Virus record (IMG/VR): IMGVR_UViG_3300045988_159113
Length of the DNA: 64,000 nucleotides
Direction: 5' to 3' (one strand)
From: a virus
Part shown: positions 1,463 through 58,678 of the stretch, piece after piece
How the letters are laid out: each line of letters opens with the position of its first letter
Position numbering within the stretch: the stretch's first letter is position 1
Program-made: the position numbers and the translations under genes
The notes under the pieces: generated by a model
What the model was told of the DNA's origin: nothing
Databases searched by the model: none
What the model saw: only the letters and a program-made list of their open reading frames with translations

Positions 1463-1565
1463 CAGGATAAAAATTCTTATATAAAGAACAATAAATTATT
1501 AAAGATAACACTATAAGATTAAACCATCCGCTAGATATTTTGTCATATATTAAAAGCTTAATAAT

Positions 1566-5063: not shown

Positions 5064-5066
5064 TAT

Positions 5067-5682: not shown

Positions 5683-5683
5683 A

Positions 5684-6658: not shown

Positions 6659-6665
6659 AACACAA

Positions 6666-6719
6666 GGGGGTGGTGAGTATCTGGAAAAATCCAGGTATTC
6701 ATCACCCCCTTTTTTTTTT
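6666..6719 (+). terminator. rho-independent terminator of the rightward operon
   Basis: A 19-nt arm GGGGGTGGTGAGTATCTGG pairs with CCAGGTATTCATCACCCCC. The three non-Watson-Crick positions are G-U pairs only in the + strand RNA. Loop is AAAAAT, followed by T10. Confidence 0.8.
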
Positions 6720-6753
6720 AAAAATATTATTATTGTCTAAAATATTAAAAATC

Positions 6754-7434: not shown

Positions 7435-7438
7435 GAAA

Positions 7439-7476
7439 AGGACAAGTAGGAGAATATCCTATTTGTCCTTTTTTTT
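7439..7476. terminator. bidirectional terminator between the convergent arms
   Basis: AAGGACAAGTAGGA pairs with TCCTATTTGTCCTT (14 bp, one G-U pair), loop GAATA. A T8 run follows on the + side and a T-rich tract follows on the - side. Confidence 0.7.
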
Positions 7477-10400
7477 ACTTTTCTCTTTCGTTTCTAAAAA
7501 CGTCTGGTTTGATAGCATCAAATGCTGGCTTGAATTGTCGAGATGCAGAGAATGTATTGATACATCCATCCCAGAAATCTTCATCACCAGTTGCAATTTT
7601 TAACCAATTAGATACCTGTTTCCCAGTCCATTCAAATGCAAATGGCGTCCAGTTTGTGATTGGTGTACCGATTGAATCCATGAAATTAAAATCAAAAGAT
7701 GCATTCCTTAATGAAGCAATTGCAATATTAGCTGCAGACAAACCAAGTCCTGCCATAAAATCATCAGATTTTTTGTTTTCATTCATGGCATCTTTCAACC
7801 ATTCTCTAAGAAATCCTGAGATAATAGTTCCAAATAATATCCACATCATCAAATCTGTTGTGATCTGTTTGATGTTAGATCTGAAACGTTCGCGTACATC
7901 CTTGTTGGAATTATACCACATTGAAGAAAAACCTTCTTGAATAGATCCTGTGTCATACATTGACTTTGCCATTGTAGATAACTGAAGCATCACTCCTTCT
8001 CTCCAATCTCCTACCCATTTGTATACAGGATATCCCGTGTCTTCTGTTACTGGTTCAAGATCACGACGTACATTGTTATCTTTATCAACTTGATAGTATA
8101 ATTTTTCACCTGTCTCTGGTTTTTCTATCTATTTATAGTGTCCTTGCAAAGTAACGCCACCAGGAGCAAGGAATAAGTTTTTCTTACCAGACCAATACGT
8201 CCTGAATTGCATCCACATTGAGCCAATAAGAGTTGACTATATCAATGATTTTTTTTCATGGGAATAATATCCGTAGATATTATCCGCTAAAGATTTCATG
8301 CTCTCTGCTTGTTTATTTGTATAAGCTCTAGGTAGTGGTTTGAATTTCCCTGGCTCACGTACCCATGGATTTCCATTTTCATCTTTAACTCCTTCAAGTT
8401 CAAACTACTCAGCCATTACGTCATACAGCGCTTTTTGGTGCTTGTACATTGGATCCGATGTGTGCCCGTTTACTAACAAAGTGAATCGCTTATCTGCTTT
8501 GAAATCATATTTCAATACACCATCAACTAATTTGTGAGCATCAAGACATCCGTCAGCTTCCATCTATGACCCAAAGATAATGCAACGATTATAGTAATCA
8601 GGACGAGAAGAAAACTTCATCAAGAAATTTGTAAAGTTATGAATTCCAAATCTGTCTGATTTAATCTTGTCACCATATGTGTTCATATCCATATCATTCA
8701 ATCCATATAATTCATTGATTTTCATAAATAATGTTGGATGAGATGAATCTCTAAACATATCTGCATACACTAATTTTGCAGCTTTAGTCATATTATGAAA
8801 TGTGAATGATTGATTTCCATCTGGCTATGTAATAAACAAACGAATATCTGTGAATAATCCCTGTAACATCTGATAGAAAAACTACACCGGAGATAACGCC
8901 AAAGTAGCTAGAGATGCAGCATAACGCAATGAAGTCAATTTCTCAGCCACACCTTGGTATCTTGGATCAATAATAGATTGGTTGAAAATTTTATTCATCA
9001 CATACTCTTTCAGGTACTGCCTATCATTTTTAAAACCAGAAGGATCATTTTGTAATGCAGCAGACATTGTTAAATGAATCATTGCTGCTTTAATCATTGG
9101 GAAAACACTATCCATATTTTCTTTCATAGAATATGCAAGATCGTGTTTTATTACCAATGTCTCAAGGTTATGCTCTATGTTAGCAATGCCACCCATATCA
9201 GCGATTCGTTTAATTCTATCAGGACTTTCGTCATTAGCAACGTTGAATCGGTTGATCATCTGGTAGAAATTTTCATTTGCCTATTGCTGTTTTAAATCTT
9301 TACTAGCTTCAAATACACCTTCAGCTTTCATTCTCGCCTATTCCCATGCATACTTAGGATTTAAATATCTGAATATTTCTTTGATATTAGATAATAAGCC
9401 CTTTTGAGAATGTTTTGAACTTTCTGATGCAACTTCAAGGGGAACACGAAAATATCGAATATCATGTTCATCTCTCATCTTTTGAAGTTCAGATTCTGTA
9501 TAATTACTATACCTGTTGTGATTTATCTCATTCAATACAAATTCAAGAAAATCGCGCTCTTCCTAAGTATCTAATGTGCTAGGATCAACAAAAACAAAAT
9601 CTCCGTCTGGAGTGTGTTGCGTCATGTTCACATATAGATCTGTTTGGTTTCCCAACGTGTGAGTTTGTAAACTTCCAAATCCCTTTGCCTTTTTAAGGTT
9701 TTCAACAAGCTTGCTTATCTTGATCATCTTACGTTGCATATCATCTCGAGTTAGCTGATATGCTTGTGTGACCATTTTAGTAATAGTATTTAGAGTTTCA
9801 CTTGAAAGATTTCCAGGGTTATCTGTATATGTTCCAGATATTCCTTTTGTTAATATATTCGTACTTTCTAACCATTTAGAATGATCCCTGAGCTATTGTC
9901 TGAATTTGATTCCTCTTTTATCTGCTAAAGCAATAATAACCTGATTATATAACTGCATATGTTTCTTTTGTAAATTTGAATCTTTTACACTTTCTGTATC
10001 AGCAGCAAAATCATTTTCAAGCCTTTTTCTTAATTTTTCAAGTTCTCGAATTTGTTGCTCTGGGTTTTCAATTGCGTCATAAAAAGAACTGAGCGCATCT
10101 GTATATCCTGCAAATTGATAAATTTCTCCTTTGAAATTACTTGCTTTTCCTTCCTACATTATACTCTTAAAAGTATTAAATGCAAGCTGATATTTTGATG
10201 CAAGTTGTATATTCCCATTTTTAAAATTATCAACTTCAATTGGATCAATATCATTCAATGCTTTCCAGTTGTACGCAAGCTCTTCATTGGATAATGCTAT
10301 ACCATAAGCTGATCCTGGATTCATTACTTCGATACCTGTAACTTTTACATCACCAACGTCACCAAGAGCATTCAACAATAGCATTGTTTCTATGATTTCA

Positions 10401-12268
10401 ATATTACCAATTGTTGCTTCAGCAATAAGAGAGTCAGCTTGAGACTAAAAATACACATCATCTCGTCCAATACCAGCGCAAAGGTTTTTCATAATGCCAA
10501 AATTCTTTCCTTTATTACCCTCTGCTTCCTAGAAAGTCTTTGCATTATACAAGCCATAGTCAAGATTTTGTGTGGAAATTCTTTTGATATCCAATTCATT
10601 TGTTATAACATTACGCAACATGATAACACCAAACTACTCGGCTGCATCGCAATCAACAACTTTCCATTGCTTATTGCAATACTTTGCAAATCGCTCTTTG
10701 AACCAAGTTGCAGATAATCCGTGATGATTTGCTGATGCACTTGGGAATTTTACTTCTGATGTTTCATTTTCAATTCCCTCTTTTAATGCTGCAACAGTTG
10801 CATCATATTTTATCATTCGAAGGTTTCTGTCATCTTCAATGTATTTCTTAACCTAAGCCATCAGCGTTGCTTCTGCATCAGGTCCGGCTTTAACAACAAA
10901 AGTCTTTCCAGAACCTCCTCCATATGTATATGAAAGGTTGCCATCTTTATTTGGAGTGAATCCACCAGCTTCGTTTATTTTATCTCTTAGCCATTTGTCG
11001 TCAACCTTTCTTCTATCTGAATATGTGGGAAATAATCTTGCCATTCTATCTTTTACCTTTGTTAGAATCTGATCTGCTGGTATTGATATGCTATATTTGA
11101 ATGGTAAAATTTCATTCAAGTTTGCTTGTGTCCTTTCATTAGTTAACTATACAGTGATATCTTTCAATCCCTCAGTTTTACAATTTTCAAATGAGAATTT
11201 GTCTGTTGTTTCATCTAAATGAAAGCCATCCATCTGAATAGGTAAAACATAAGCCTTCTTGTCTTTCATGCGCAAGCCTAAATCGGACAACATTCTTTGA
11301 TATAAACCAATCTGATGAAACACTGTAATTTGTTTTGCGCTTGAATAATCAGAGAAAGCGTGAATAGATGTTTTGTAATCCACAATGTGCGTTTGTCCGT
11401 GTTTATCAATAACTACCAAGTCAGCAATACCATAGAGTTGTTGTGTGCATTTTGATGCGCCAATATGCGATTTAGCAGTCAAAGGCATCTCGGTGTAAAA
11501 TGTCAATGGACCCTACAACGAACTATTCAACTAATCATAGAATGTTTTTGCAATATCAATAACCTATGAAATCTAATCTAAAGATATACGTTCTGCATTC
11601 TCCGGTTTTAACATTCCATGTATCTTGCGACGGTCTGCATCTGAATTTGCGCCTAATGTCTACAGCCTTATCTTATATTCTTCGCTCTCGCCAGATACTT
11701 TCTAAAATAACAGTTGCAAAACTTCATGGATAGCAGTTCCGGTATACGCTTGTTCTTTCCATTTCCTTGTTATTCTTTTCCTGTAATCTTTGAATGTCGC
11801 ATCATCTCCTTTTGCTAATTTATGAGTTGTGCCATCATCTCCTGGACCAAACAAGTATTCAGCAACATCTTTTGAATATTCACCTTTTTCGAATTTTTCA
11901 CGAAGATTTTTCCACAGATTATCAGAATTGAATTCAGGGACCATATGATCTCCATTGATATTTCGAACAGCACCTAGAAATTTATTCACACCAGTATAAG
12001 GAGCAACTTCGCCATTCAGAAGGTTTCCATCATCATCGAATTCAGCCCTATTTGAATGCATGAACTCATTCATCTTTTTACGCAATTTGGATGTCTCTTC
12101 ACCATGTTTTTTTATCAGTTCATCCGCCTTTATTTGCTGTTCGCTAATACTGAAAACAAGATCTTTGTATTTAGCATACAGCTCACCTTTCTACATCAAA
12201 AAATCTTCAAGTTCAAGTTCAGATGTGAAAGGATTAATTCTTCCTTTTATATAATATACACAAGCCAT
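7475..12268 (-). CDS. 1597-aa giant protein with N-terminal RecB/Cas4-type PD-(D/E)xK nuclease domain and C-terminal hydrophobic segments
   Basis: One frame runs from ATG 12266..12268 (GGAGG about 10 nt upstream; TAATG overlap with the upstream gene) to TAA 7475..7477. It contains 23 in-frame TAGs and no TAA/TGA (hand-scanned). Motifs: GTAIHE, IADLVVID, IVDYKT, QIGLY. Confidence 0.8.
11300..11740 (-). other. PD-(D/E)xK nuclease core motifs
   Basis: GTAIHEVLQ (11723..11740), D in IADLVVID (11420..11422), DYK (11372..11380) and QxxxY in QIGLYQ (about 11300). The core is interrupted by six in-frame TAGs. Confidence 0.65.
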
Positions 12269-13341
12269 TAGTCACACACCTCCTTTAATTGTCCAGATTT
12301 AAGCATTGCTGATTTCATATTGTTCAATTTTCTATGTATAGAACTATCTTCTAATGGAAAAGAATTCACTGATGTCATCTTTGATGAATTGACTAAATCA
12401 GCAATTTGTTTCAATGAATATTTCCCAATATCCTATAGTTTAAGATCTCGTATTCCAAAAGAGCCTTCTAGCATTGTATCTATCATTCTATTAACCTAAA
12501 ATTGAACTTGATATGCAATATCAGGATCTATAGAATCAAATACAGATTTCTGGCCAGTTATAAATTTAGAGTATTCAGTCACAAAGATTTCTTCATTTAT
12601 ATCATTCCTTGATCTGTTAGGATATGTGCGCGCCATTTTCTCATAATTAGGAAGCTATTCGGATAAAGATATGAGTTGCATATAAAGATCAGGCTTTGCA
12701 AACCTTAGCTATCCAATAAGCATGTGAGACAATTCATGTATAGGAGAATCAACAGAATAGTTGTTCATGTTTATATATATCTACCCATTTAGAATGAATG
12801 CTTTTGGATTTGGATCTACTGCTATCACATCTTTAAACATTGGATCATTATGCAAATCATGCAAGTATACCTATTTGAAATGTATACCATACAAAGTTGC
12901 AAGTTTTCCAAATGCTGTATCAAGTATAATTTTAGAATTAACTTCCTCGTCAGGCTTGTATCTAACTTCAAAATTATTGTTGTATTTACTTGGACGGTGT
13001 GATATATTAACAATTGATGTTTTATTTAAAGGTAAAATATCAAATTCCAAATCATTATATGTATCTTGAGTATTTAATAATACAACAGCCTCATCAACAG
13101 TGTCAACCTGAAATTTATCTGTCAATTTAGATGTTTCTGTTGTATTGTTTTCTCGCAGCTCTAAAAATTCACGAGCATGCTCAGTAGTATCAGATCCATC
13201 TATTTCTGCTGGAGTCGGCCATCTGCCATTATGCTTGTCAGCATAGTCGATTATTTCTGCTTCAAGAAATAAATCAGAGAGACCGGTCCTCTCACTCAAG
13301 GACCGGTACTCATAACTTTTTTTATTTATACATGCATTCAT
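12268..13341 (-). CDS. 357-aa zincin-like (HExxH) metallopeptidase
   Basis: ATG 13339..13341 lies 2 nt after the TGA of the upstream gene. It ends at TAA 12268..12270 and has six in-frame TAGs. The motif SPIHELSHMLIG places HELSH at 12724..12738. Confidence 0.7.
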
Positions 13342-13343
13342 TT

Positions 13344-16300
13344 TCAACAACCATTTTGTTTTTTCTTTTCTTGGGCTTTTATTACTTTAATTAGTGTATC
13401 TCTACTAATTGTTGCCGTCTTTTTATTTCTGCTTATTATGATCGGATTATTTCTTCCTTTTAACTGTTCAGCTGGAATTTTACGAACTCCATCAGAGAAT
13501 TCAATTTCAAAAGAACTCAATTTTCCTGCATTAAATTGTACAGAAATCCTTGGATAGTATTTTCGTTTTTTGCCATCTTCCTATTGTTCTATTTCTTCGT
13601 CTGGACGTTTTCCAAGTTCAATTAATCTTCTACTATCGCCTATTTCTTCAAGATTAATATTCTCAGAATCATTTTCTGGTTTATTCATATCTATTTTTTT
13701 CTTGTCAAACGTCAGCTTCTTTTCTCCATTTTCATATGTAATCTTTACAGCGCCATAACCAAAAGTGTATGATGATTCCATTACATCATTACGATTTCTG
13801 ACATCATAAATTTTGTGATAACCATATTTGTCTTGATCTGCGGCATAAATAATGATGAGATCTTCGCCATTTGGACCTGTGAATTTTACACGACTTGATT
13901 TTTGTAAAGAACCAGTTCTGAAGTACTAGGTATCAACTTTGGACCTTATTTCTTCAAAATTAGAATCATACCAATTTGCCCTTCTGATTTCTTCCGTGTA
14001 TTCGAAATCATATGGTACATCGTAATATTCATCTTCATCGTAGTAACTGTTTCCTTTTTTAGAAAAAGCATCCATATTTCTCAATGTTGTCCATTCTCCA
14101 GTATGCGGATTGCGCTTTCTAACATATCCACTGTTTGCTGTCTTTGCACTAAAAATAGGAACAACATAAGGAAGAACATCTTCCACTTTTATGTCAGCTG
14201 TATTGTACCCAACAGTGTAGCGATCGCCATGTTTATCTGCTTCAGCAATGAATTTCTCAAGTTCAGAGATTATTCTTGAATTAGAAGCATCAACCAATTT
14301 TGTGAAAGTATTTTCACCTAAATTTCTGCGCTAGGCAATTATATTATAATATGCAAAAATATCATGTATAGGAATACCTCCATATGCAACAGTGCTCAAT
14401 CTCATGTATGCATTGACATATTTGTCAAATATGTGCTAATCTATTTTCTCTCTTGGAGATAGATTGATTGTCGGAATAGAGTAGTACAACTCTTCATTAT
14501 GTGAAACCGTTTTGTTTGACGATACAACACCAAGACCTGCAACAAACTCATTTCCTGAGAATTGTGCTTTCAAATATGGGATAACATCCTATTCAACCCA
14601 AGCTCTAAACGATGCATTGTTGATATCAGAACCAAGTACCAACTCAATATCACCTTCCGTCTATATAGAATTGCCATCCTAATCAAAAACGGTTCCACCT
14701 TTTGGAATCTTGAACTTCTAGTTCTTTGAAACAAGGAACTCATCAAGCATAAGATCATCATAGAATCGCCTCAATCCTTTAATTATATCTGTATCAGATA
14801 CAGATGATAATTTTAATTGAGTCTTTACTTTTTTGTAATTATCCAATCCAAAGCGATACTTTGCAGATCTCAAACTTGCTCTAGTGGAAACTGTCAATGC
14901 CTTCAAGAATCCGTAGACATCCTCTTTCCCGAAAATGATTGCGAGAGAATTGAATGCAACTTTTTTGTTTTCAAAATCTTTGATTGCTTTATCTCTTGCT
15001 TCTTTATTGAAAACAAACTGTTCCAGATCGATAGCATTATCAACACCAAGCATTTCTTCAAGAGAAATCAGCATTCTATCTGACGAAATTTCTTCGTTTT
15101 TAAGACCTTGGTTCAAACTCAGAATCTGACCAAGAGTTTTCATCTCTTGTGCTCCTTCGAAAAGTTTTTTGAAATCTTTGAACTCTTCTTTATGTGCATT
15201 AATCACTTCTGCTTGAGTCACGTATGTGATTAACTCATCAATAGCATAGCAAACTTTTGCACTGAAATCTGTACGTCCAGCTCCTTTTCGTGCTTCTATA
15301 TATTTAGCTTTTAGTTCATTCAAGGAAGCGATTTTTTTCTCAGGTGTATCATCTTGATTTTTAGACATTACAGCTTTTTTCAATATTTCTTCACCTCCCG
15401 CTAACTGACATAACTCTTGATATACAGTTTTCTTTGTTCTCTCTCCATTTTGAGACATGAAGTTGTATTTGCGTTTCAAATAATCCCATGGTCCTTGTTC
15501 TAAATAACTAAATACACCAAATAACGTATTGAAAGAATCAGTTTGATCCGTGAAACTGTTTGCTTGCAAAATCTATATGGCAAGATCTCCAACTGGTCCC
15601 ATTATGATCTTTGTAAGTGTATCAACTGGAACTCCAATCGTTACACCAAAGATATACATACCTAATGTTGCAGGATTTGCATTCAGCTTGTTCAAGCTCA
15701 AATCCTTGGCATTATCCACAGATAAACTCAATAATGCACTGACAGCAAGAGCAGGATCATTCTATGCTCCTGCATCAAGCAATTTTCTCAGCAATTGAGC
15801 ATTTAGTGTATTTGGAGATTTTGGTCTTACGTCAGAAGGCAGGCCATAATGTCTCCCGTTTATTGTTATATTAAAATACAGAGAATTTTGTCTTGGGTCT
15901 TGATCTGAATTCATTATCAAATCATAGTAGTACTATATAGCAGACAATGCTTTCAATCCAACAGCAGCAATAGAAATACAATCCTTACCAACTTGGTTCT
16001 CAACAATACCATTTGCTTTTAATGTTACAGAACCAGGTTGTCTGTATTCAATATCGTTTTTCTTAGATGTATCTGCAATTTCATTCCATTCATCCTTACA
16101 ACTATCAATAGGCGTTCTTGATTCAATCATATTCGCAGGATCTTTTGATACTTCTATCATGGATGATATCGTGATATTGTTTGCAATCTATCTTTGTACA
16201 TGCGGAGATTTGATCCTTCTCAAATACAAATTGTGTTTATTGAAAATATACAGTAATGAATTATTGAACTTTTTAATTAGCTCTTCATCAGAAATACCTC

Positions 16301-19300
16301 TTGTACTATCAACAAATCCGTACTATTCTAATGTATCACGCAAATCTTTTGTGTCTGAAGTGTTTAGTTTTATTAACTTTGGTACAGTCTTCAACAATGC
16401 TATAATACTTGGAATGTTGACTTTCTTATCTAATTCAAAGAAGATATGTTTCTTGTCAGATGGTTTGAATAACCCGCCAAACTATTTGAAATAAGTAAGA
16501 GCTTCATTTGCACTCGTTCCATCCAAGTATTCAGTGTCATCATTAGAAGACTACATGTTATTTTCGCGAATCTTATACTCAACAGATGATGGAGCAGGAA
16601 TTCTTCTTGACTGCTGAATTTCCTCGTATGTATCATATTTTGCATACGGTGACCACAAATACAGCTTTCCTCCTTTATCAACAGAGTATGTAGCTAATGA
16701 TACAGTATCAATATCATAATCAGAACCTTGTAACCAAATCTGATCAGTAGATACGAATGCATTATTTACGTCACTGTCTACAAATCCAACCACACGCATG
16801 GGCATGAAAGAGTGCTGACACTATGCAGGAATACGAGATGCTACAATATCAAGTGTTGTTTTAAAAGATGCATACATTCTCAATCCTTCTGTTCTAAACT
16901 TTTCCAGTAAGAATTTCGAGGAGCTGCTAGACATAGATTTCAAATAATCTTTGAATACCTCTTTGATTTGTGCGCTCTCGCTGCTGTCTTTCAATTCATC
17001 TATTATATTGTTAAGCTATTCATTTGTTCCTGATTCATATACAGAAAAACAACGATCAATATACCGATCTATATTTGTATCATCTACATTGTTGCCCAAA
17101 GTTATATAGCTGTATTTGATATTATCCAAATAAAGTTCTGGATTATCTGTGACTATAATCTTCTGGCAGTACAAGTTATCCACAATAATTTTGTCATCAT
17201 TTCCAATTTGGAATAATTCTGCACCATTATCACTCAGCAAGATTTTGTTTCCGTTTATATCTATAGTTGTGCGTGGAGATATTTCGTGTACATCTTTGAG
17301 TTTCTTGGCATTAGCTTTGCTAATAATATAAAAATGTTCTCCTGTGATATTTTTGAGACATATATCATACAAATTCTTGGAAAGGATACCGTCCCAGTTA
17401 TCCATTAATCTTTTACCAAAAAATCCTAAATAATTAATATCATTAGTTGGTGTTTCGTTTTCTATGAAAGATTTAGATTCATAAGAATCCAAAATATTAG
17501 ATACTGAATCGCCTGCTTTTAATCCGTAAACAGTTGCCATAACTTTTGGCATCACAACTTCATATGGATCACATTCAACTGTTGATCTATCTACATCAAC
17601 TTCTTGTCCGTTTATTTTTACACGAGTCCGATTTGCAACAATCTGCCTCAAGATCTCTTTTTGCAAATAGAAAAATTCTGGTGTAAGTTCAAGGATTTTC
17701 CCATTGATAGTCAATTTACGTTCACCTGTTCTTCCAAGTACATAATTTACCCAGTCGCGAACTCTATCACAATATGCGATTGTATTATCAAAACCATCAC
17801 ATAATTTGTCAAATTCAGACAACAAATCCGCAGTGTTTTGCGATAAATTATTCAAATCATACTGCGATTCAATCCTAAGTTTAGAATCAATTTCTTTTAC
17901 GACTTTATTAAATCTTTCTTTGTCAGAGATTACTCCATAATCAATACCTACTGTTTTGATTCCAAATGATATCAACTCATCAAAATCTGGCTAATCTGAG
18001 GATTTGATTTTTTTGATTATTGATTTCAGTTTGAATAAGTTGCGAATTGAATCAATATCCATAAGCTGAAACTTATTTCCAGAAGTATCTCTGAATATGT
18101 AGTTTATACTAGACAATTCGTGTCCAGCATTAGCAACCTCTATGACTTTAGAAATTTTTCCTTCGTTAATCTATTCAGTTAGAGCGATATAATCTTCTGC
18201 TGATGTAAGCTTTTTCACCTTAATTCTAGCACGGTCATATATCTATCTTGCTTTTTCCTTAACTTGTTCATTCGTCAAATCTTTATTGAAATGTTTTTGT
18301 AATGCTTCATAAATTGAAAGTTCAACATATTCATTGAATGTTTGATCAGGCTCTCCGAATATTTCAAAAACATCTTTCAGATTCTACAAATCAAGTAAAA
18401 TTTGAGACCCTTCTATTCTGACACCTTCCTTTATATTTTTTCTTGTATCTCGAATTCTTATGATATCAAAATCATTGTATTTGGTAACATTCTCATCGTA
18501 TTTCCATAAGTTGGGTATAATTTTGTATGTCTTACCAATACGGATTCGTGATGTATCTATCTTCTTGAGTTTTGAATCAGATGCTAAATCAATGCCATTC
18601 TCTTGCATATATTGTTGCGATTTCATTTGTGAAATATCAGCAACATTTACATTGTTTGTTGGCTTTACCTTTACAACTATATCTCCTGGATTAGCATCAA
18701 TTGAATCACCAAATTTCTACTCTACAAGTTCATCCTTACCGATAGCATAGACAATTGGATCTTCAAGAATTTCGTATTCAATATCATTTGCATCATACAA
18801 CAAATCACCTTTTCTGAAGTCAAAACGATCATTGCTGTCTTTGAAGTTGAATGACACGATCATCGTATTATCTTCGCTGTTCTATTTGAACGATTGAAGA
18901 CCTTTGACGTTATATTTACGTGGAACTTTTACAGGTCGTTTCTATTCCAAGAAATGATTGTTTTTCTCTTGTAAGTTTTCACGAAGTGGGTTGTTATCAC
19001 TGCGCATAATAACAGCAATATTTTTTGCTCTAGTCAATGCGGTATACATCAGCTTGGATTTAACGTCATCTGTTGTCCGTTTGTTATGCATAATATCATC
19101 ATGCTGAATAAGGACAACATCATAAGTAGAACCTTGCGCTTTATGTACTGTTGTTGCATAAGAAAGTCCAACATCAACAGCATCATTGTCTTTCATCCAT
19201 TTTTTCAATCCTGGATTATTTTCTATAAAACGCTAGCCAAATTGCATTTCAGGTATTACAGTCAAAGAAACCGTATTGCCATTTGATAGTTCTACCTATA

Positions 19301-22300
19301 TTTCCTGCGTGTGGAATGAACGCTATGCATTATCTTTCCCAATCTATGCCTTTTGAGATACTGGATCTGATACACTGACAATTTTGCCCTCCATGGAATT
19401 TTCAACAATCTCTGTGGTTTGTTTCATTACGACAAACTCACCAATTCCATATTGATTCTTTTTGTACCCTAAATAGTCGTGTATCTTATTGTTGAATCTA
19501 TTCACCTCATTGTTAGTATATGCAAGTATTTTGATAGCGCTCACATTTCCAGCTTGCACAGATTCTTTTATGAATTTAAGCGTCTGATCATTTAGGTCTA
19601 AATTGCTAGAGTAGATTGCGCCACTTTCGTTTTCATTTGTGATATTCGGAGAAGTTATTCCTGGAACATTATCGTAAAATCTTTCTGCATATCTCAAAAT
19701 CGGGTTTTCACTAGATCCTTGTCTCATATTCTATTCAAGAGCGAATCTCAGTTTTACAAGATTCGGACCAGCATTTGGGCTGAGATACATGTCCGGCTCT
19801 CGCATTTCAGAATCAAATATTGTGTAGTTATTAAACAAATCGTCTTCTAATGCTGGCAACTGACCTTTGTCTCCAAGTAATAACAAGATAGAACCTGGTT
19901 TCATTTGCAATCTGATCATATCAATCTGCGAATTGCTTAACATGGAAATCTCATCCAATACAACAATATCTGCATTTTTGATTGGTGCTTGTTTACCAAT
20001 ATGTGTGTAATCAAATACTCCATCCGCATTTGGCTTTATTCCAAGCATCTATGCAAAACTCAAAGATTTATAATTTGAATATCGCCCATGCTTAATACTC
20101 TCTGATATATTGGAAGAGATTATATTTTTAGCTTTATGACTTAATGCTCCAACAATCAAATTCGCCTATGATGTTATCCTCATTGGTAAATTGCGCAATA
20201 TTGCATCCACAGTTGATGTCTTACCTGTTCCTGCTTTTCCATCAATTACGATTGTTGAAACTTTTGTTGATTCATCACCAAAGTTTTCCGTGATCAGTTT
20301 AATTGATTCGCGTACAGCCTCAGACTGTTTTTTGTTTAACTGGAAACCATTTGATATGATACTGTCAGATACACTTTCATCAGTAGGATTTAGTTCAATA
20401 TTGTCGTTGAATTTATTAGAGAAATTTTCACGCCCTTCTTGTGCATCTACATACATCATGGAAACTTCTGGATCTATGAATGTACGTCTCTCTCTAGTAC
20501 CTTGCTTTGTTATATCTATTTTTGACATAACGGAGTTTGGACCGCCGAGATATGTAATGCCATCGATACTATCAATTGCTTGTACAATAGCGTCTTTTGC
20601 TTTAGTATAGTTGTCTAGACGTTCTTTCTTACTCTTTGTTGTATCTGCAACTATTGCGAATTTAGATTTCAAATCTTCTGAAATGCCAGCAATTAAATGG
20701 TTTTCAAATTTATATCCATCTCCGCTTATATCTTTTGGACTTCTTGCTATATCTTCAAGTAAATTCAACAAATCATATAACTCATTGGCATCTTTTACAG
20801 ATTCTTGACGACCAAAACAATATGCTGTATTTTCAATATCTGTTTTTACTGAGTACAAAACTGGATCAATTCCATTCGGAGACATGTCCCAATTTGATTT
20901 ATCAAATTTACCTTCATGTATTGCTGCACAAATAGCTGATTGATCAAATGTGTCTTCAGTAGAGTGAGTTGAAAGCATTATCTTCTTATTCACCTATTGA
21001 AGCATTTGATACAAAGAAGAAGGAACATAATATTCCCATGTCTGTCCGGCCATTGCTAGCTCTTGCTTTATAAATGATGCATTTATAACCTCTTGAGAAT
21101 TAGATATTGCAAAGAAGTTTTGTCCAGCTATACGTATTGGTGCGATGATAGCATCATTGCCAAAGACCTTTTTGACATCTTCAACAGTGCCAAGTGCCCC
21201 ATCTTTTGAAAGCGATTCGTCATCACTACCGATTAGCAGAAGTGCTCCATCTCGTATCGCCAATTTCCCTTCGTCTATGATTGTTTTGTTTATATCTTGC
21301 TTCGGCTTGCTCTTTGGATTCAATGTGCAAATCAGTACAATATCACCATTTTGATACTATGAACAGTTGACTACATCTGGATCTTGTTTTAGTGCCATTG
21401 TGACACTGCGCTCAGACAAATAATTTTTTTCGCTATTTTCCGCAGATGGCAAATATCCTATATATTTGTTTGATATCTAAGCCATGACATTGAGCTGTTC
21501 AAAATCTTTTTGTATTTCCTGTTTCTTTGAAAATACAGGCTCGAGATTCGCTGTCTCAAATTCATACGCCCAAGATACATTCTCCAAAAGTTCTGCAAGT
21601 ATTCTTGCAAGGCTTCTGCTTGCTGGCTATCCATCATATATTACCTTTGACGTATCTTTTGCCATCATGTTTTTATAAGCAAGAATAAGTTTCGGATTTT
21701 GATATGCCCACAATTCATATAATGGTTTCAAAAATGTCTCGTATTCTTCTTCTCCATATTTTGATGGCTTAGTATCTGTTGCTTTGTTATAATCATCTAT
21801 TATTTGTTTGATTGATTTACCTGAAATGTCTTGCAAAGAATCTTTTTTCGCTGTAGATCGTGGTGGTCTCTTTGTAAATACAGGCTCTTTTCCTGGTTTT
21901 TTAGGCTCTTCGCCAGTTTGCGTTTCTTCCCATTTCTAATATTTAGCTTTTGCTTTCTCCCATTTAGCATGTGCATCTTCAAATTCTTTGTGTTCTTTTA
22001 TATATGCATCATGTCTTTTGTTGAATGATTCAATTGCTTCTCTTTGCTTTTCTTCATAGAATCCTTGAAGCTTTTGAAATATAGTGTCTGGCAAATAAGT
22101 TCCGGGTTTAAATGTTGCATTTGCTGGTAATAATGCACCAAAAGATGTCTGAAAATTGAAATATTCACCTGTTGGCAACTACTATGACCAGCGGTCTTTT
22201 GCCGGTCTATCATCAAATACAAATGTTTTTTCACGATATATACATTTACCTCCATTGATCACAGCCCAATCTTGATTAAGATGTTTTGCACTCATTACAG

Positions 22301-25300
22301 CAGCATATCCAATACCAGATTGTCCATCAGATAAGATTCTGATTTTTTGATCTCCTATGCTAGTTGTTATACCTTGTATAATTCCAACAAACGTTCTATT
22401 GAAATCTGATTGCTATATGAATTTGCTTTTGAACTTAGTAATATCATCGCCTATTATACAAATATTTCTTTTGTCTGTTGTATTAGCAGCTTTGATATTT
22501 TCAACAATAGTTTCGATTGTATTATTGATGAAACTCTAATTTCCAAGATCTGTGTCAGATATTTCTATTATATGCAAAAGTTTCTTTTTGTCTTTTGCTT
22601 TTTTATTTGCTGCATCTATGCGTTGCTGTAAATTAAGAATATCCTTTTGGTTTTTATCTTTTGTGAACACGTAAATCTCATCAGATTCTACCATCAACTA
22701 TTGATATAGCTATGAACGTCTCCCTTGTTCTAAGAATGTAAAATGCTCATCAAATTTTTCCCCATCAGTTTTCTCTTGTGTCTACTCTTCGCTTCTCTAC
22801 AACACATTCCGTTCCATTTTGGGAATTATTATCTTTGACTTATCTTCTGAAAATGCATAAGCATCAGCAATACTCTAATCATTTGCAAGACCATCAGCAG
22901 CATCATGCTCGCTATTGCCTTCAATAACATCCAAGAAGCCATATTCCCTGAACATCTCATAGGTTTTGAGATTATCTTTGCTAACTTCAGAATTTGCAAA
23001 TCTTATATCCTTGCCAATAGGAACAGCATTTGTAATAGCTGAGAATAAACTTGAAAGCTATTCTTCTGTCAATCCGTTTGTGTCCATATTGAATATGATA
23101 TCATATTCATTTGTCTAGAAATTGTATGTCAAATCTATATATCCATCATGGCCGTTTATACTATAGCGTGTAGCATCTACGTTCATGTGTTCTCCGTCAG
23201 CGTTTGATGCGGAAAGTGTGATTTGTTTAATATCTACATCTGTATTTCTATGCAAATCAAAAGCAGCATCTTGATCATATGAATTTTGTAAAGCGTTTAT
23301 TTCTGAATCAAAATCAGCGAAATCTTTTTTTAGTTTACCATTACCGTAAACGAGTACACAGTTATATGATGGAGTTAACACACTCAATGATCCAGATATC
23401 TTGTGCTTGATACCTTGCTTTGTGAGTATTGATGCAATAGATGATATAGCTTGTCTATATATAGATTTTGCACTGAATGGAATTTCCAATTCGGCATAAT
23501 CAATAACCTAGCCATGTCTTTCTTTATCCAATATTTCCTGGGCATACTGCTTTGCTCTATCTGTTTTGCCTGCTCTATTTGCTAATGTCTTTATGAGGCT
23601 TTTATTTATAGCAGCATAGAATTCTTTTGTTGCGTCGGCTACCTATGATTCTGTAGATTTCGGATCAAGCATTTTCTCAAATGGAACAATGAAATCTCGT
23701 GTTCCAACTTTATTCAAAGAATATAGGGCTTTGTACAAATTCTGTGCAACATCAAATGTGAATCCTCTAAATGCACATGCATTCATCACCTGTGTCATCA
23801 TCGAAAGCTCAGCCTCGTCTGCTTGGTGCTCCTTATCAAGCTGTATTCCAAACTGAGTTGTCAAGAAGTATGACCAATTTAATTTAGCATTTTCATCATT
23901 ATATACAGTATTTGGATTCATGTTGCACTGGAACATCTTAACAGCCCCCTCAGTTGGCATATAGTGTATATTGGCATGTTTAAGAACCTAATAGAAATAT
24001 TTGACACTATCACCATCTTGTATTTTTACAAAATCAAGCTCATTGTCAGTCGGGTCAAGTTGATCCTTAACAACACCTATATCATTTGCCATATCAGCAA
24101 TCATCTGTACGGATCGCTCTGAGAGAACAAGCTTGCCTTCTGTATTCTTTGAATACGAATTTTCTCCTCCGAAAATTTCCCAAAGTGTGTAGTTGTTGTC
24201 AATTTTAACAGCCTCACCTGTTGGCATGTTTTTGATAAGATTACCATAAGCATCAACCTATTGCAACTTTACATAATACATGTTAATGCCAGGAGCTTTT
24301 TCAAGAGAAACACGATAAAATTCTCCATTCTCTTTTTTATAGACAGGTCTCGTTGAGAAATCTATACGATTGCCTTCTATTGTCCTAGTAATATCTCCGT
24401 CCCATTCAGTACCATCTGGATTTATCCATTTCAAAGATGCGCTCATTCTGAACAGATTACGATATACGCTTGAACCACGCATGTTTTCATTATTCAATGG
24501 GAATGCGGCTGTCTTCATCATTCCAGCACACATGAGCCTCTCATTATAATAATGAGCATACGGTTTCTTTGTCTAGCCCACTCTAGCACTGGCAAGCGAA
24601 TTGTTTTCCCAATATACTTGCATTGGACTTGTAAATGTCGCACCATCAAACGGTTTCACTCTATCAGTTTGACCCAAGTTGTTATAAGCGGATGCATATA
24701 TGTCTTGAATCAATGCTAACTTTGCACGAGTTGTTATGCCATTCCTCTGCCCAAGCTGGGAACCTTCCATTGCTGCTGTAAGTGATACATTACGTTTTGT
24801 TTGAGCAAGATAACGCAACGATTCGGCTGCCATTATCTTTTCACGTTCTGTAATTGCAGAAGTCTTTCCTTTAGGTATATGAGAAATAATTGATCCAACA
24901 GAGCAGTGAGTATATTCAGAAGAAAGTAAATAATCCACAAGATTATACTGTTCCAACAATGGGTTCATCTCAACGTCAAATTTCCCATCTTTCAAAAATT
25001 CCTTTTCTGTTACGTTCGGATCAAGCAAATAGAGATCTGTGTAATTTTTTATATCGTAAATTTTACCGTCTTTTTTAATTTTTGCAATAATCATCTAGCC
25101 AGAATTCTCATCATACCAGAACACTCCTTCTTTCTGACGGATTGCATCAAAACGAGCCTTGAGATCAACAATTTCCGGATTATTTCCTCTTGCCTCTTTC
25201 ACTGCTGCTGATTGCCCGTTTGTCGCAAATGCAAGACTCAGGTCTATTGCAAAATTATTTTGCAATAAATCCCAGACAGTTTTCTTGTTTTTATAATTAA

Positions 25301-28300
25301 AGAATTCATCTATAGTATAAAAATCAGATAGGTTGATCGGTGTTAATCCTACATTGCCAATCTGTGTATTAAGATTCTCGACATAGTCTTTGTTGAACCT
25401 GTACAACAAAGAAATGATTGTGTCGTTGAACTTAATATTTTCATTTTTATCAAATGTGCAATCTACCTAATTATATAATTCTGCAGGGTTCACTCTTCCA
25501 TTATCTTCGGTATTATACCACAGCAAAGCTTTATCGAACAACTATTTGTGTGTATTGATTCCTATTTCTTTCAATCGTCCAGCATTTTCATTGAACCAAT
25601 TATAGAAAGACTAAAATCCAGATAATGCATGCGGTTCGTTTGCGTAAAAATTAAATTGAGGAATTCCCCATTTATCAATATATTTGTTTATAACGGTAAA
25701 AAACCCATTGCTACTGTTCACGAAATCTTCTGAGATATTTTCATATACCCTTCTGTATTGCAAACCAATTTCATTGCGTATAACTCGAAGCAATGTGTCT
25801 TTTTTCTGCTATGTATTCATGTTTTGATCATTCAACACCTTATACATAGTTTGATTATTATCCAATTTGAATAGAGCAAGATTGAATATCGCTGTGTTCA
25901 CTTCACTTTTATCTGAGTTCGTTGTTGGAAGTATACCAATAACACCATCACCAAAAATGTCTTTGCTAGTCGATCCTGTTATTAAGTTTTGGCTAGATGA
26001 TTTTTTCATTAGTCCAGATATGAACTGATACAAAAATCCTCCATACATAAATTCAGCCGTGTTGAATTTTACGGTTCGTTTGCCTTTCTGTGCATACGAA
26101 TAGCTTTCAAGATTCTTGGCAACGCCAACAAACAATCCTGGCATTTTGACAAAAGCAGAATCTTTTGTTGCTGAATCTTCTTTTGTACATTGCAGCTCGA
26201 CCTATTCCTAAATACTACCCAGTAATCTGCTCATGCTATATGGTGAATATGCTGATCCATTTCCAGATTTCACAATTGATGGCATATTCATTTCTTTCAC
26301 AGCAAACACAGCTCGTGCTATTCTTATAAATTCAGGAGTCATCGTTGGAGTTATCAAAGAAAAACTTTTTCCTAATAATTCCGGCGCATCATTACTTGGG
26401 AAATATTTTTCAACTAATGCAACCTTATCATCACGTGTTTTTTCATTTGATAAACCCGTTTGCAACTAATCTTTCAATATAGCATTTGCTTTTATTTGAT
26501 TAGCAAACAAAAACAGGTCTTTGACAGCATTAAAATCACTTCCAGATCCCTTGTATTTTTTGAAAAGATAATCATTATATCCAAACCCAAGACAAGTCTG
26601 ATTCGATACAAATCGCTTCAATATTCCAATAATATTACCAGCATCTTTGCTTGGAAGATTATCGAAGAAATCCTTCACACTCTAATCAGATAATACAATC
26701 CGACCTGAATCTGTGTTTAATAAAGTTATCGTAGGCTTTTTTGGATTTTTTGTGTCTGTTTTTACGGTAATTTTATACCCGTCTCCTGTAATCCAATATG
26801 TGATTTTGTTTGGGTTCTTTTCGTCAACCTACGCATTATGTCCTTCAACTGATAATTTTAAAGCATGAGATCCGTTGATATTGTTTTCAAGCCTGATTTT
26901 CAAATTATCAAATTCCTGATCAAAAAGATATCTGACTCTAGTTCTTCCTCTTCTGTCTGTATAATATTGCGTGATTGCATTTTTATATATAGTTGCAGCG
27001 TTTTGCGTAAAATTATACAGAATGTCACGATTCACATCGAGATGATACAAAGAATCACTTTCTGAGGAAAATATGCCTCTATAAATAGAGAACAATTTGT
27101 CTTTCTTTTCTTTTGTATCATATCCATACTGTGCAAACAACTATTTGATTATCTCTTCATTTTGAAATTTAGCATTGTTTAATAATTCCAAAACATACCG
27201 TATGTTGTTTTCCATGTCAAGTTTCATTGATGTGATACAACGCCGTAATGTTTTGTGCTTTTCAACATATGTTTGTGTTTCTTTACTAAGGCCAAGATCG
27301 GATATTTTTGCGCTAAATAATCCATCAGCTCCTATTTCTACATAAGCGCCTGGAGATGATGCCATTGTTTTAATGTCTGCAATTACAGTTGCAAAATCAG
27401 AATAACTCAAATACAAATCTGGCTTTGCTTTTTTAGTTACAGAATCATATTCAGATGTTGTTTCGATTCCACCTTTTACAATGTAATTGATTAACTTGTC
27501 AACTATAATCTCATCTGCTTCAGCATGCGTCGTTCTATTTGTGTGACTTTTATTTGCCAAAGCATATGCCATATATCCGTTGTGTTGTTGCTATGTACTT
27601 GGCAACATCTCAATATCTTTTCCAAATAGTACAGTCAGGAAGGAATCAAAATTTGACAACAGAACAAATGCATTGTACGCATCAATAAATGCTTGAGCTT
27701 TCTTTCCGTTTTCAGTTTTCGGTTCACTCTCTGCAATATTTGCTTGTTCCAAAATATCTTCTGATGTGAATCGGTTGAAAAAGTCTTGTAATCTTGTTTT
27801 GTTCAGATCAAAAAGATATGTTGGCATTAAATTGTCACTTGCATCTTTCCTGTATAATGTGCCCGTGATAGAATTTTCACCTTGACCTTTATTTGCATTG
27901 TAGTACTCTACAAGAATCCCAAATTGGGATTCCTGTAAAGTTTTGAGATTATTATTCATCTAAAGTTGTGAAGTCACTGCACCGGCATTATCTTCTCCTC
28001 CTATCGAGCCTCTATTGATGAAGCATGATTCCCAGATGTATCTTGTGAATTTATCCTCGAATCTAGACCTTAACAGATACATACCACGAAATGCATAATC
28101 AAGGAATAGCAAATTCAATTCATTATCAGCATGCTTTCCATACACACTTTTTGTAGTCTCAACATTTGATTGTGTAGTACTTGGAGTTTCTGGATCAGCA
28201 GTTGCTTGTGTTACACCAGTGATTGCTCCTCTAATTATTGGACCGAAATCAAAATTGCTAAATCCTGAAGCATTTGAAAGTATTGTGTAATAAAGAGACG

Positions 28301-28535
28301 ATTTGATTATTGGCTCTGCAAGTCCAATAAAATCATCAACATGATCTTTTATGTCTGGGCTAGAATTCAAAATGTTTTCTCCGATATGTTTGCATATTGT
28401 TTGTGCCCAAGCAACAAATTTTTTTTCTGGAGTTGAATTCTATTTCATTACGTCCATAAATATGGACGTGCTGCCCATTAAAGTGGTACGAACAACAGAT
28501 TTTGCTGTTTCTTCATTAAATTTACATTTATTCAT
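13344..28535 (-). CDS. 5063-aa giant multidomain protein: SLOG-like motif, Dda/RecD-type SF1B helicase core and beta-prime-like DxDxD RNA polymerase catalytic loop
   Basis: One frame runs from ATG 28533..28535 (first ATG after in-frame TAA 28551; 11 nt after the upstream gene's TAA) to TGA 13344..13346. Every gap between track ORFs was hand-scanned: 66 in-frame TAGs and zero TAA/TGA. Confidence 0.8.
16707..16721 (-). other. DYDID (DxDxD) metal-binding motif of a two-barrel RNA polymerase
   Basis: The reverse complement GATTATGATATTGAT encodes DYDID. Context: IVASRIPA[TAG]CQHSFMPMRVVGFVD..NNAFVSTDQIWLQGSDYDIDTVSL. This parallels bacterial beta-prime NRAPTLHRLGIQAFEP...NADFDGDQMAV. Confidence 0.65.
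19023..20240 (-). other. SF1B (Dda/RecD-like) helicase core inside the 5063-aa ORF
   Basis: Motif I GKAGTGKT (20217..20240), II VVLDEISM, III LLLGDKGQLP, V ATTVHKAQGSTYD, VI YTALTRAK (ending at 19023). The motifs are in canonical order and are separated by seven in-frame TAGs. Confidence 0.75.
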
Positions 28536-28545: not shown

Positions 28546-31500
28546 TTAACTTATAGAAAGGACTATTGAACAAATTCCTGTTTGATTTTCTTCAATATCT
28601 TGTTTGAGCTTTTGTGCTAGTGTTTCAAGCTGATCGACTGCAGTTTTTAAATCTATTTGCCCATTTTGAATATCTTGTATTATAGTAAGATTTTGACTAG
28701 TTAACATTCCTATAAGGATATTTACTCCTTCATCTAATCTGGTAAACGAGCTTAAAATATCAATTGCCTGTATAAAGTTACTAATTTCCGTCTTGATAGA
28801 ATCTTCATATTCAATTTTCTAAGTATTACCATTTTCATCAGGTATCATTTTCTCTATTATCTTTTTTCCTTGATTGCTCAAAATAGGTGTAGGAGGAGTT
28901 CCTGGCGCGCCAACAATGCTAACATTGTTCATTATTATATTTGCATCGCTACCCAACTAGACCTATACACCACTACTTGATCCTCCTTCACTTCTGGATT
29001 CTGGATGCTTTTCAACTGAGTAGTTTACACGTAATTTTCCGGTTGCCATATCAGATTCAAAATTTATGGTTAATTTATCACCATTTGAGTTTTTAAATTC
29101 AATACCCAACAATGTTTCTGCATTTTCATCGCTAATTAAATCAATATCAATATCATCTGTAAATTCAAAATCTATATTTTCAAAATTTATATTTTGATAT
29201 TGCGGTATTGAATTGAAAATCGCCTTCCAACTTGTAAGAGAGTGTGAGATGACTGGATACTATATAGTTTGTCCGTTTAACGTACCATTGAGTTGAGTGC
29301 ATTTTCTAATGTTGCACACAAATGCAGTATATTGCATATTTTGAATATCATTCGGTTTTATCCTTCTTGCATTTTTCGGTGGGAATATATCAGCATCTCC
29401 GTCTAATACAATGTCAAGAAAACTCTCATCACCTCCAAATAAATGTTTTGCTACTTCAGCCTTAAATTCTTCATCAGTTAATGCTCTGCTTCTACTTCTA
29501 CCTCTTGATTGAGATCTCGTGTAAAAGAATGGGTGTGGCTTTCCGGTTCTTCTATCAATATTTGTGTATCCATACAAATCGTCATAGCCATTTCTTTTGT
29601 TCTCTTGCTCAGCATGATCAATTGTTTCCAAAAACAAATTGTATAAATTAGTTAGGTTAACATTAAATGCTGGTGTATCAAGTTTTCCATATACAGTGCA
29701 AGGCCTACCTTGTAACGAGTACGTTGTAAAACCATACATATCTCTATCTTGGTCTATTAATCTAAAATCATCCTGTCTGTCTTCATTACTTTGATGCTTA
29801 AACTTAGCAACCGATCTCACTGCATATTCATCTCCAAGTAATGCTTTAAATGCATTAATCCTTGCTGTGTTTATCGTGTCTGAATTATTATCATATGCTA
29901 TGTGATGTAATAAATCATTACATAAAGCTGTGAGTGAGTGCTATGTGGTTATGTCCTGAAGCCCTTGTTTTACAGTTCGTGTGATTGTTATATTATCTAT
30001 GTCGGTATAATTATATTCTCCTCTTATGGTATGTGCTATTGCATTTAATATCGTATGAGCTAATCCATGCGACGCTGTTTCCACAGTCGAGGTTGCCAGT
30101 TGCCAGCTTCTTGATGTGTTCTTGTATTTTGCAATATCAGATCCATCAAGGAAATTCCTCAATTTAGTCAATCTGTTATTATCAACTTTCCCATCAGATC
30201 CAATGATTGCATCTCGCAAGATCTTATATGATGAGAATTTGTTTCCAATTCTGAAATTACCAGAAGCACTGCGAGTTAATATTCCATGAAGGTTTTCACA
30301 ATATTCTTCAACACTATAAAGAGGTGTGTATACATAGGCGTAGAAAACATCTTTTCTTGAATTAGGATTATTTCTCTACTCTTTAAATTTATCAATCAAA
30401 TCTCCTTTTGTGTATGCAGGATTGAAAGAATACAAGACGAACGGCATACCAGATTGAACCTCTATTTTTTTACCAGGTTGAATCTCTATGTTTTGAATTT
30501 GTGATGTCAGCATTAGCATGTCTGTTTTTATACACATAGGATTAGACAAAGCTTTTGCAACTTCTGTTGCGTTCATTTTATCTTCAGCCTTGAATCCCAA
30601 ACGTGGATCTAATGCAGTAGATCCTCTTTCGGTTGATCTTGTATTTGACTGTGGGTTGCCTATACTTGCAAGATTAGTATTTTTTGGCAAAAAAACGATG
30701 TCATGATTAGTACTGTCAAAGAACTTAAATGACTATAAAAGCCATTTTAAAGTGTTTATCTTTTTCTTGTTTTTCGCAGTATTTGCATTTGATGCACTTT
30801 CTCTTGCCTCAATCTCTGTTTTCAAAACAGTCTATATACTTGTAGACTTATTATGCGTTTCGTCACCAGAGGTCAATACTCTATCGATTTTTTTGAGAAT
30901 ATTATTTTGAATAGTATTCTCATCATTAAACAGATCTAAAAACTCTTGACTCTAAATCAGTGAGAATGGATTGTTTAATGTCATCATTGGTAATTCCAAG
31001 AATAGCTGTGATGTGTTTTTCCCATCTGCGTCCTCGCTCTCAATTCCAATAAATGAGACAATTTGATTTGGACTTGGTGGGATATCCATGTCTTGATTAA
31101 ATTCAAGACGCTCCGCTTCGTTTCTGTTAAAGATTCCGTATCTTTGACCACTGTAGTTTGTTTGATCTTCCAATGTATTTCCATCTGGTCCATATTTCAC
31201 AAATCTTGTTTTTATTGCATGATCTATGAACAGATTGCCTATTTCAGCATTGAAAACATCTTCTTTTACATTAGCTCTTGTACCATCTATTTGTATATTT
31301 TGACTTTGAACTTTTGACTTTACAAAAGCAAAAACATTTGTACATGCTGATTTGATCTATTCTTTTAGTGTATCATTATTTACAGTACTTAAAAGTGCAG
31401 CTCTAAATGGAGCAATTAGTTTGATAGCATCTTCTCTAGTAAAAAGACTGCGGAATGTATCAAATACGTCTTTGTTAATAGCAAAATTGTCATATCCGCA

Positions 31501-58600: not shown

Positions 58601-58678
58601 GAGGATATTATCGGGAACCGTTCCGACGTTGTAGTCCATAACGATCCCACCCTCGAATGTGTTCTGGGCGTATTCCAT
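52673..58678 (-). CDS. 2001-aa tail-like structural protein (the last 141-157 aa could be a separate product if the TAG at 53150 terminates)
   Basis: ATG 58676..58678 to TGA 52673..52675. It has 19 in-frame TAGs and no TAA/TGA (hand-scanned). The sequence is beta-rich and Asn/Gly/Tyr-rich, typical of tail or receptor-binding proteins. Confidence 0.7.

Follow-up and report, generated by a model that had tools for sequence, protein, structure and literature searches.

The only crAss-type virion RNA polymerase to have been characterised, gp66 of Cellulophaga phage phi14:2, transcribes single-stranded or denatured DNA efficiently, native phi14:2 DNA weakly and double-stranded M13 DNA not at all (bioRxiv 10.1101/2020.03.07.982082). 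No specificity or melting factor is known for it, which raises the question of how such an enzyme engages a double-stranded DNA genome. The RNA polymerase (RNAP) QDE-1 requires the helicase QDE-3 together with RPA (bioRxiv 10.1101/2020.03.07.982082). Homologous RNAP-associated giant proteins have been identified by mass spectrometry as virion cargo in PhicrAss001, packaged and ejected (PMC10172136). Here we describe g5063, a giant protein encoded in a 64,000-nucleotide stretch of viral DNA (IMG/VR record IMGVR_UViG_3300045988_159113; the whole stretch is referred to as the window), in which a superfamily 1B (SF1B) helicase shares one reading frame with a predicted gp66-type polymerase core. 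The window derives from a large Crassvirales-type phage (~190-200 kb), which probably belongs to the Zeta group. The parts of g5063 are as follows.

13344..28535, minus strand: g5063, giant virion-RNAP-type protein; a single open reading frame (ORF) of 5,063 codons with 66 in-frame TAG (read as Gln) and a TGA terminus
23193..28535, minus strand (residues 1-1781): N-module, defined by blastp/tblastn to L004, L005, L006, L007, P0049 and P0057
18216..23192, minus strand (residues ~1782-3440): clade-specific insert of ~1,660 residues, defined by junction mapping
22254..22715, minus strand (residues ~1941-2094): alpha/beta (Rossmann-like) domain in the insert, with the patch LSDGQSGIGYAAVMSA
18996..20333, minus strand (residues 2735-3180): SF1B Dda/RecD-like helicase domain, from Pfam, PHROG, motifs and selection
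13806..18215, minus strand (residues 3441-4910): predicted RNA polymerase catalytic core, gp66 homologue, from hhalign, AlphaFold, Foldseek and 756 homologues
16707..16721, minus strand (residues 3939-3943): DYDID catalytic motif in the context SRIPAQCQHSFMPMRVVGF...LQGSDYDIDT, aligned on gp66 1361-DFDID-1365

When TAG is read as a sense codon, the g5063 frame extends over 15.2 kb with 66 TAG, no TAA and no TGA, and its product has a mass of 574.8 kDa. A preliminary description of this stretch had reported an SF1B helicase core at 19023-20240 (minus strand), cut by seven TAGs and continuous with a polymerase module. Translation gave the motifs GKAGTGKT, VVLDEISM, LLLGDKGQLP, ATTVHKAQGSTYD and YTALTRAK in the order reported, and the interval contains exactly seven in-frame stops, all of them TAG and all at the positions listed in that description (plus-strand codon starts 20166, 20049, 19731, 19344, 19323, 19296 and 19233; g5063 residues 2790, 2829, 2935, 3064, 3071, 3080 and 3101). 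The frame is also unbroken from the helicase core to the DYDID motif, forming one ORF with neither TAA nor TGA. The g5063 gene gave no match to GenBank phages by megablast.

None of the 28 ORFs of the window terminates in TAG. The codon is present at 8-24 per 1,000 codons in the minus-strand cargo genes and absent in frame from the eight plus-strand genes at 1127-6445, so that only part of the genome is recoded. In comparisons with three ~97% identical IMG/VR relatives (L001-3), 24 of the 36 codon exchanges involving TAG were with CAG and two more were to CAA; none was to TGG or TAA. A tRNA with anticodon CUA is encoded by the complete 197,477-bp relative G002. TAG is therefore a sense codon, most likely for Gln, in the late or cargo genes, and the pattern in the window matches the partial late-gene recoding of TAG to Gln known in crAss-like phages (PMC7886860). 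If the TAGs were instead true stops, the apparent fusion would be either a string of short genes or a pseudogene in decay; under translation table 11 seven stops do cut the helicase region, and the window itself contains no tRNA gene. This reading is scarcely credible, and was excluded, given the absence of TAA and TGA alongside 66 TAG, the predominance of TAG-CAG exchanges, the suppressor tRNA-CUA of G002, a ratio of nonsynonymous to synonymous substitution rates (dN/dS) of ~0.1 in all g5063 segments, and collinear orthologues of ~5,000 residues at 38% identity. The G002 tRNA-CUA gene, an amber suppressor labelled Pyl by ARAGORN (G002:C1:164663-164739; L020 4663-4739, minus strand), is separated by ~17.6 kb from a small cluster of Lys, Leu and Gln tRNA genes at ~182.2-182.5 kb (L021 2245-2523). 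A 123-codon ORF at 47516-47887 of the window has 17 CAG, no CAA and no TAG; its product is small and rich in Gln, and its codon usage sets it apart from the neighbouring genes.

The helicase domain contains motifs I (GKAGTGKT), II (DEIS, within VVLDEISM), III (GDKGQLP), V (TVHKAQGS) and VI (YTALTRA) in canonical order, with both a Walker A (GxxGxGKT) and a Walker B (DExx) sequence. The Dda/RecD-type identity proposed earlier was borne out by recovery of the families named at that time above their cut-offs (AAA_30, 42.1 bits against 27; UvrD_C_2, 41.5 bits against 27.4). Viral_helicase1 (48.8 bits against 21) and AAA_19 (45.6 bits against 25.1) were also recovered, and PHROG 325, "Dda-like helicase", matches g5063 at E 3.9e-51. 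The nearest solved structures found with an orthologue profile against the PDB are all SF1B enzymes (9KWF_B, 2.7e-15; RecD, 3.3e-6; RecD2, 1.1e-4; Dda, 2.4e-4), and nidovirus helicases of the MERS-CoV/SARS-CoV-2 nsp13 type are weaker matches (E 0.011-0.45). Identity to free-standing phage Dda/RecD helicases is ~26%. Motifs I, II, III, V and VI do not vary among five orthologues whose overall identity is only ~40%, and dN/dS is 0.08-0.15 for the helicase and 0.09-0.14 for the polymerase core. Judged by its motifs and substitution pattern, the domain is a bona fide Dda/RecD-type SF1B enzyme under purifying selection. We take it to be active, with ATPase activity and 5'->3' polarity predicted from its family membership.

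The polymerase part was less readily recognised. When the C-terminal module was compared directly by sequence with Pfam, PHROGs and the PDB, nothing was found; a profile of the full-length orthologues against the PDB found helicases only and no polymerase match, and cluster names gave no annotation. Because direct searches failed, identification of the polymerase required hhalign and a fold search. A deep search with residues 3780-4900 yielded 756 homologues, 41 of which were aligned for hhalign against phi14:2 gp66. The core matched gp66 with 88.2% probability (E 2.9e-6, 330 columns), residues 3893-4325 of g5063 aligning on gp66 1314-1663 such that RIPAQCQHS...GSDYDID falls on RIPNQGQSS...GSDFDID, NQVGKDCISIAAVG on the bridge-helix region and ALLSLSVDNAKDL on the trigger-loop region. 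The DxDxD metal-binding loop is preceded by an R-x-P...S strand of the beta-prime-type barrel (SRIPAQCQHSFMPMRVVGF...GSDYDID), and this arrangement is conserved in the 756 homologues. Of the two connector-linked double-psi beta-barrels expected in one such chain, the second is covered by the alignment with gp66; a putative first one is suggested by PYEVVMPK (3657-3664), invariant in orthologues, and by beta strands in the model. An AlphaFold (AF2) model of residues 3441-4640 had a predicted local distance difference test (pLDDT) score of 81.3 and a predicted template modelling (pTM) score of 0.76. Foldseek of this model gave 6VR4_A, the structure of gp66, as top match (E 7.6e-6, probability 1.00, 832 columns) and as the sole match at E<=0.001; the weaker matches were mostly RNAP beta-prime chains. 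The hhalign and Foldseek results, with a crAss_MUZ protein encoded upstream, agree with the crAss-type virion RNA polymerase expected as the partner of the helicase. By alignment and model, then, g5063 is a gp66-type, probably two-barrel, virion RNA polymerase protein, for which packaging in the virion and RNA synthesis are predicted.

The preliminary description had placed the helicase upstream of the RNAP module. It does precede the catalytic core, but it lies inside the ~1,660-residue insert that follows the N-module and not ahead of the whole protein. The N-module is kept in all relatives, either fused to the core or as a separate protein of ~1,730-1,820 residues, and where the insert is lacking the N-module/core junction is bridged by 9-105 residues. 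One 2,256-residue ORF of L006 matches g5063 284-1812 and 3441-3938 with ~105 residues between them; the gap is ~55 residues in L005, and 70 and 9 residues in the single-chain homologues P0049 and P0057. Since relatives join the N-module and core almost directly, the helicase is seen to occupy an insertion within the polymerase protein and not a position in front of it. It lies ~470 residues ahead of the first conserved core strands.

In a check suggested in the preliminary description, orthologous giants were found to keep the fusion with no TAA or TGA boundary: P0007 (95% identical to g5063), P0008 (69%) and P0009 and P0010 (both 38%) are all 5,043-5,093 residues long, collinear end to end and retain the insert, the lack of a stop boundary in P0008 and P0010 resting on called proteins and not on DNA. 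The insert has a dN/dS of 0.06-0.15 and a TAG density of 16-19 per 1,000 codons, like the rest of g5063. This match in TAG density and constraint with its surroundings, and retention of the insert by orthologues of 95, 69 and 38% identity, argue that it is no recent arrival. About 100 other cluster representatives are without it. Among the 148 best core-homologue cluster representatives (103 of at least 2,500 residues, typically 3,000-3,900), the helicase is present in two, the orthologue P0009 and P0073, in which it is C-terminal to the core. From this distribution the helicase-bearing insert is clade-specific.

The AF2 model of the insert beyond the helicase was poor overall (pLDDT 50) and reached pLDDT 65-87 locally, at the Rossmann-like domain; Foldseek matched it to generic Rossmann-like folds alone, at E>0.02. 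The patch LSDGQSGIGYAAVMSA has a SLOG/YpsA-like look by eye only, which Pfam and fold searches neither supported nor excluded. Pfam searches of the rest of the insert, including relaxed ones, found nothing credible, and a K/E/P-rich, linker-like stretch lies at residues ~2160-2235.

Polymerase genes of several relatives are interrupted. The ORF of L006 is broken exactly at DxDxD (g5063 3938/3939), and the break (L006 8756-9932) holds a LAGLIDADG endonuclease gene; in L004 (MT835470.1), a standard-code phage, a ~1-kb insert at 15174-16241 breaks the ORF at the same point. These breaks are probably group I introns in the catalytic site, and the window gene is uninterrupted. In L005 two ORFs (329-5785 and 5736-9533) encode the polymerase, the division falling after the putative first barrel (g5063 ~3694) and before the second (from ~3718), which resembles a beta/beta-prime-like two-subunit layout.

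Fusions of this kind extend well beyond the g5063 clade. GSD[FYL]D[IV]D is present in 37 of 41 giant proteins (2,800-8,900 residues) retrieved with the helicase region, the helicase being N-terminal, internal or C-terminal to this motif depending on lineage, and helicase-polymerase fusions were found in at least five domain orders. Such genes stand in crassvirus cargo blocks: L023 encodes a 3,744-residue protein with helicase and DFDID in the standard code, beside crAss_CARG1/CARGO2, and L022 a 3,545-residue protein comprising DUF1848, helicase and core, adjoining a separate N-module. In cr118_1 (MT774379.1 16381-31221, L031) the 4,946-residue QOR58373.1 is annotated "DNA helicase" (RefSeq "exonuclease V") with its polymerase part unannotated; it matches gp66 by BLASTP at E 2.7e-42, has GSDFDID at 3207 and carries a complete SF1B helicase at its C-terminal end (4439-4911). 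Reference crassvirus polymerase giants are thus labelled merely "DNA helicase" or "exonuclease V". In a helicase tree the window helicase falls in a clade (support 100/99) of 20 polymerase-fused helicases, outside which lie all five free-standing controls, cr118 and P0073. Because the fused helicases were sampled under a length filter, and the tree has an arbitrary root and several long branches, "one dedicated family" is only a lead. The novelty claimed for a helicase joined to a virion RNAP is overstated: the fusion is widespread in metagenomic crAss-like phages and present in GenBank in cr118_1, although no passage on a helicase in a DxDxD protein was found in the literature text, an earlier depiction in a figure being possible. 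On the proteins retrieved here, helicase-virion RNAP fusions are common in crAss-like phages, not rare.

The cargo row around g5063 contains the following features.

52673..58678, minus strand: g2001, crassvirus muzzle protein (Pfam crAss_MUZ 51.4 bits, cut-off 27), marking the start of the cargo row
28546..38685, minus strand: g3379, giant protein of 3,379 residues upstream of g5063
33211..34218, minus strand (g3379 residues ~1490-1825): second, very divergent SF1-like helicase core, with GGPGTGKT, IIIIDEIS, GDTNQS and YTAQTRS
12268..13350, minus strand: g360, 360-residue protein with HExxH (HELSH, residues 205-209 = 12724..12738), a motif kept in the L005 and L006 orthologues
7475..12268, minus strand: g1597, with an N-terminal PD-(D/E)xK nuclease domain (PDDEXK_1 35 bits; PHROG 69), last gene of the block

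The order giant, polymerase, zincin plus nuclease mirrors phi14:2 g067, g066 and g065. The g1597 gene is syntenic in L004-L007 and L022, and synteny of the cargo row is also seen with L023, which has crAss_CARG1/CARGO2. The helicase core of g3379 matches AAA_30 (36.4 bits) and AAA_19 (33.6 bits), and AAA_30 is likewise found in the orthologous upstream giants of L006, L007 and L022. As g3379 and its counterparts hold their own helicase, that of g5063 is an additional one. Pairwise similarity between the two is marginal, for which reason recent duplication from g3379 was rejected; the idea that relatives keep the g5063 helicase in the upstream giant instead was dropped because g3379 has its own divergent helicase. 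The conserved motif makes g360 a candidate zincin protease, with the giant proteins as possible substrates. Just past the cargo block of distant relatives is a sigma-70-like gene (L007 22096-22905; L022 27095-29175), which in L022 a GIY-YIG endonuclease gene apparently divides into two ORFs. At G002:C1:46322-46639 a free-standing 452-residue ORF with weak similarity to the P-loop half of the helicase (E 1e-6) may be the replicative SF1 helicase.

The best overall explanation for g5063, to which we give a probability of about 50%, is that it is a crAss-type virion RNAP whose inserted SF1B helicase feeds single-stranded template to the polymerase in cis. The capsid would carry the protein and release it into the cell before or with the DNA. 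On the incoming genome the helicase would load at a nick or single-stranded end and translocate 5'->3' with ATP, unwinding duplex or stripping bound proteins, and the resulting single-stranded template would be passed to the polymerase core tethered to it. A role for the helicase as template supplier is suggested by the activity of gp66 on single-stranded or denatured DNA. As fusions recur in at least five domain orders, it is co-delivery and proximity that appear to be selected, not a fixed geometry, and this repeated joining under selection provides comparative evidence for a functional partnership between helicase and polymerase. A bolder proposal, to be held only tentatively, is that the fused Dda-like helicases are a dedicated, ancient partner family and provide the DNA-opening function that these two-barrel enzymes, which have no sigma factor, have seemed to lack; g5063 would then be a helicase-polymerase machine able by itself to start transcription on entering duplex without host factors. 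If so, g5063 would be the prokaryotic-virus counterpart of the QDE-1/QDE-3 pairing. The main value of the finding is a testable hypothesis on how these polymerases gain access to template.

Several points weigh against template supply in cis. The packaging, ATPase activity, polarity and coupling to transcription of g5063 are all inferred. Foldseek aligns the model to 6VR4 with TM-scores of only 0.20/0.12, low values being expected when a protein has several domains, and the hhalign match to gp66 is confined to the region of the second barrel, bridge helix and trigger loop. Most relatives, phi14:2 included, have no helicase joined to their polymerase, which shows that it is not essential to this class of enzyme. 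With an SF1-like helicase already present in g3379 of the same block, that of g5063 could have some other job. About 1,200 residues of the insert outside the helicase have no function assignable by AF2, Foldseek or Pfam. Lastly, giant fusions may be cleaved polyproteins, and g360, with its conserved HExxH, adjoins g5063.

This last point can be developed into an alternative in which the 575-kDa chain is a precursor, cut by a protease for which g360 is the candidate into N-module, insert with helicase, and polymerase, the fusion serving to ensure co-expression and co-packaging. The gp66 study noted that in some phages three proteins of the block are fused as a huge polyprotein that is "likely cleaved", and that gp65 orthologues, phi14:2 gp65 among them, have a zincin-like protease domain (bioRxiv 10.1101/2020.03.07.982082). 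The HExxH motif of g360 and its orthologues, the occurrence of N-module and core, or of two core halves, as separate proteins in relatives, and the linker-like stretch at ~2160-2235 would all fit. However, no cleavage sites are known, RNAP-associated proteins of 262-277 kDa are intact in PhicrAss001 virions (PMC10172136), and the zincin may act on peptidoglycan instead (bioRxiv 10.1101/2020.03.07.982082); we consider processing of this kind somewhat unlikely, if deserving of serious attention. The helicase and other insert domains might alternatively be a polyvalent payload riding on the polymerase, with no direct part in transcription, that strips host proteins, restriction complexes or R-loops (such as those of CRISPR effectors) or attacks host DNA. 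ART-PolyVal, DUF1848, NADAR-like (PF08719) and cpYpsA domains do occur in the giants of relatives, add-ons vary at the N-module/core junction and at both termini, and helicase dyads are a theme already described for polyvalent virion proteins (PMC5512222). Yet the helicases set out there are SF2/SNF2 or UvrD-like and not Dda-like, and the presence of the polymerase motif in 37 of the 41 giants with this helicase is a specificity unexpected of a generic payload. Nor did Pfam match any polyvalent hallmark domain (MuF, ART-PolyVal, LPD or the methylase-SF2 dyad) in g5063, ART-PolyVal being found only in the distant relatives P0005 and P0040. An injected conflict effector strikes us as improbable.

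Less probable still, and in our judgement a long shot, is that the helicase acts after synthesis, peeling nascent RNA off the template or removing R-loops in the manner of Pif1, and so freeing the transcript or recycling a polymerase that has no RNA-separating elements of cellular RNAPs. Related fused helicases match Pfam PIF1, and enzymes of the gp66 or QDE-1 type, which copy single-stranded DNA, would leave RNA:DNA duplexes. Against this, gp66 without a helicase yields DNase-resistant, RNase-sensitive free RNA (bioRxiv 10.1101/2020.03.07.982082). Supply of single-stranded template in cis remains the explanation we favour.

Compared with known systems, g5063 is closest to phi14:2 gp66 (PDB 6VR4), with which it shares a homologous core (RIPxQ...GSD[FY]DID, bridge-helix and trigger-loop regions) and the same position in the cargo row. 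The two differ in that gp66 has 2,180 residues and neither a helicase nor any Pfam domain, whereas g5063 has 5,063 residues, a 1,660-residue helicase insert and TAG read as Gln. Uncultured crassvirus cr118_1 (Besingivirus coli, Suoliviridae, as classified by the International Committee on Taxonomy of Viruses) likewise encodes a gp66-type polymerase and a complete SF1B helicase in one ORF, but its helicase is C-terminal and outside the tree clade of the window helicase, its code is standard and its genome is ~93 kb. T4 Dda, RecD and RecD2 (3UPU, 1W36_D and 3E1S) have the same motif set and are the best solved-structure matches to the g5063 helicase by sequence; they are free-standing replication or recombination enzymes of ~440-600 residues, ~26% identical, while the g5063 domain forms part of a virion polymerase protein. 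In Thermus phage P23-45, a siphovirus, the 5,002-residue gp96 similarly joins a virion two-barrel RNAP to another module in an injected giant, although the partner is the tape measure protein and not a helicase. Polyvalent proteins (Iyer et al. 2017, PMC5512222) are also giant, multidomain and delivered with DNA, some with helicases; those described are SF2 methylase-helicase dyads or UvrD-like, and the passages found mention no RNAP fusion. Neurospora QDE-1, structurally closest to gp66, is a two-barrel single-chain RNAP that relies on QDE-3 and RPA for single-stranded template, but QDE-1 and QDE-3 are separate proteins, QDE-3 is a RecQ (SF2) helicase and the setting is eukaryotic RNA silencing. 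A giant multidomain crAss virion polymerase is already known; what is new is the insertion of a Dda-like helicase at the N-module/core junction, in a lineage with recoded TAG that is probably of the Zeta group.

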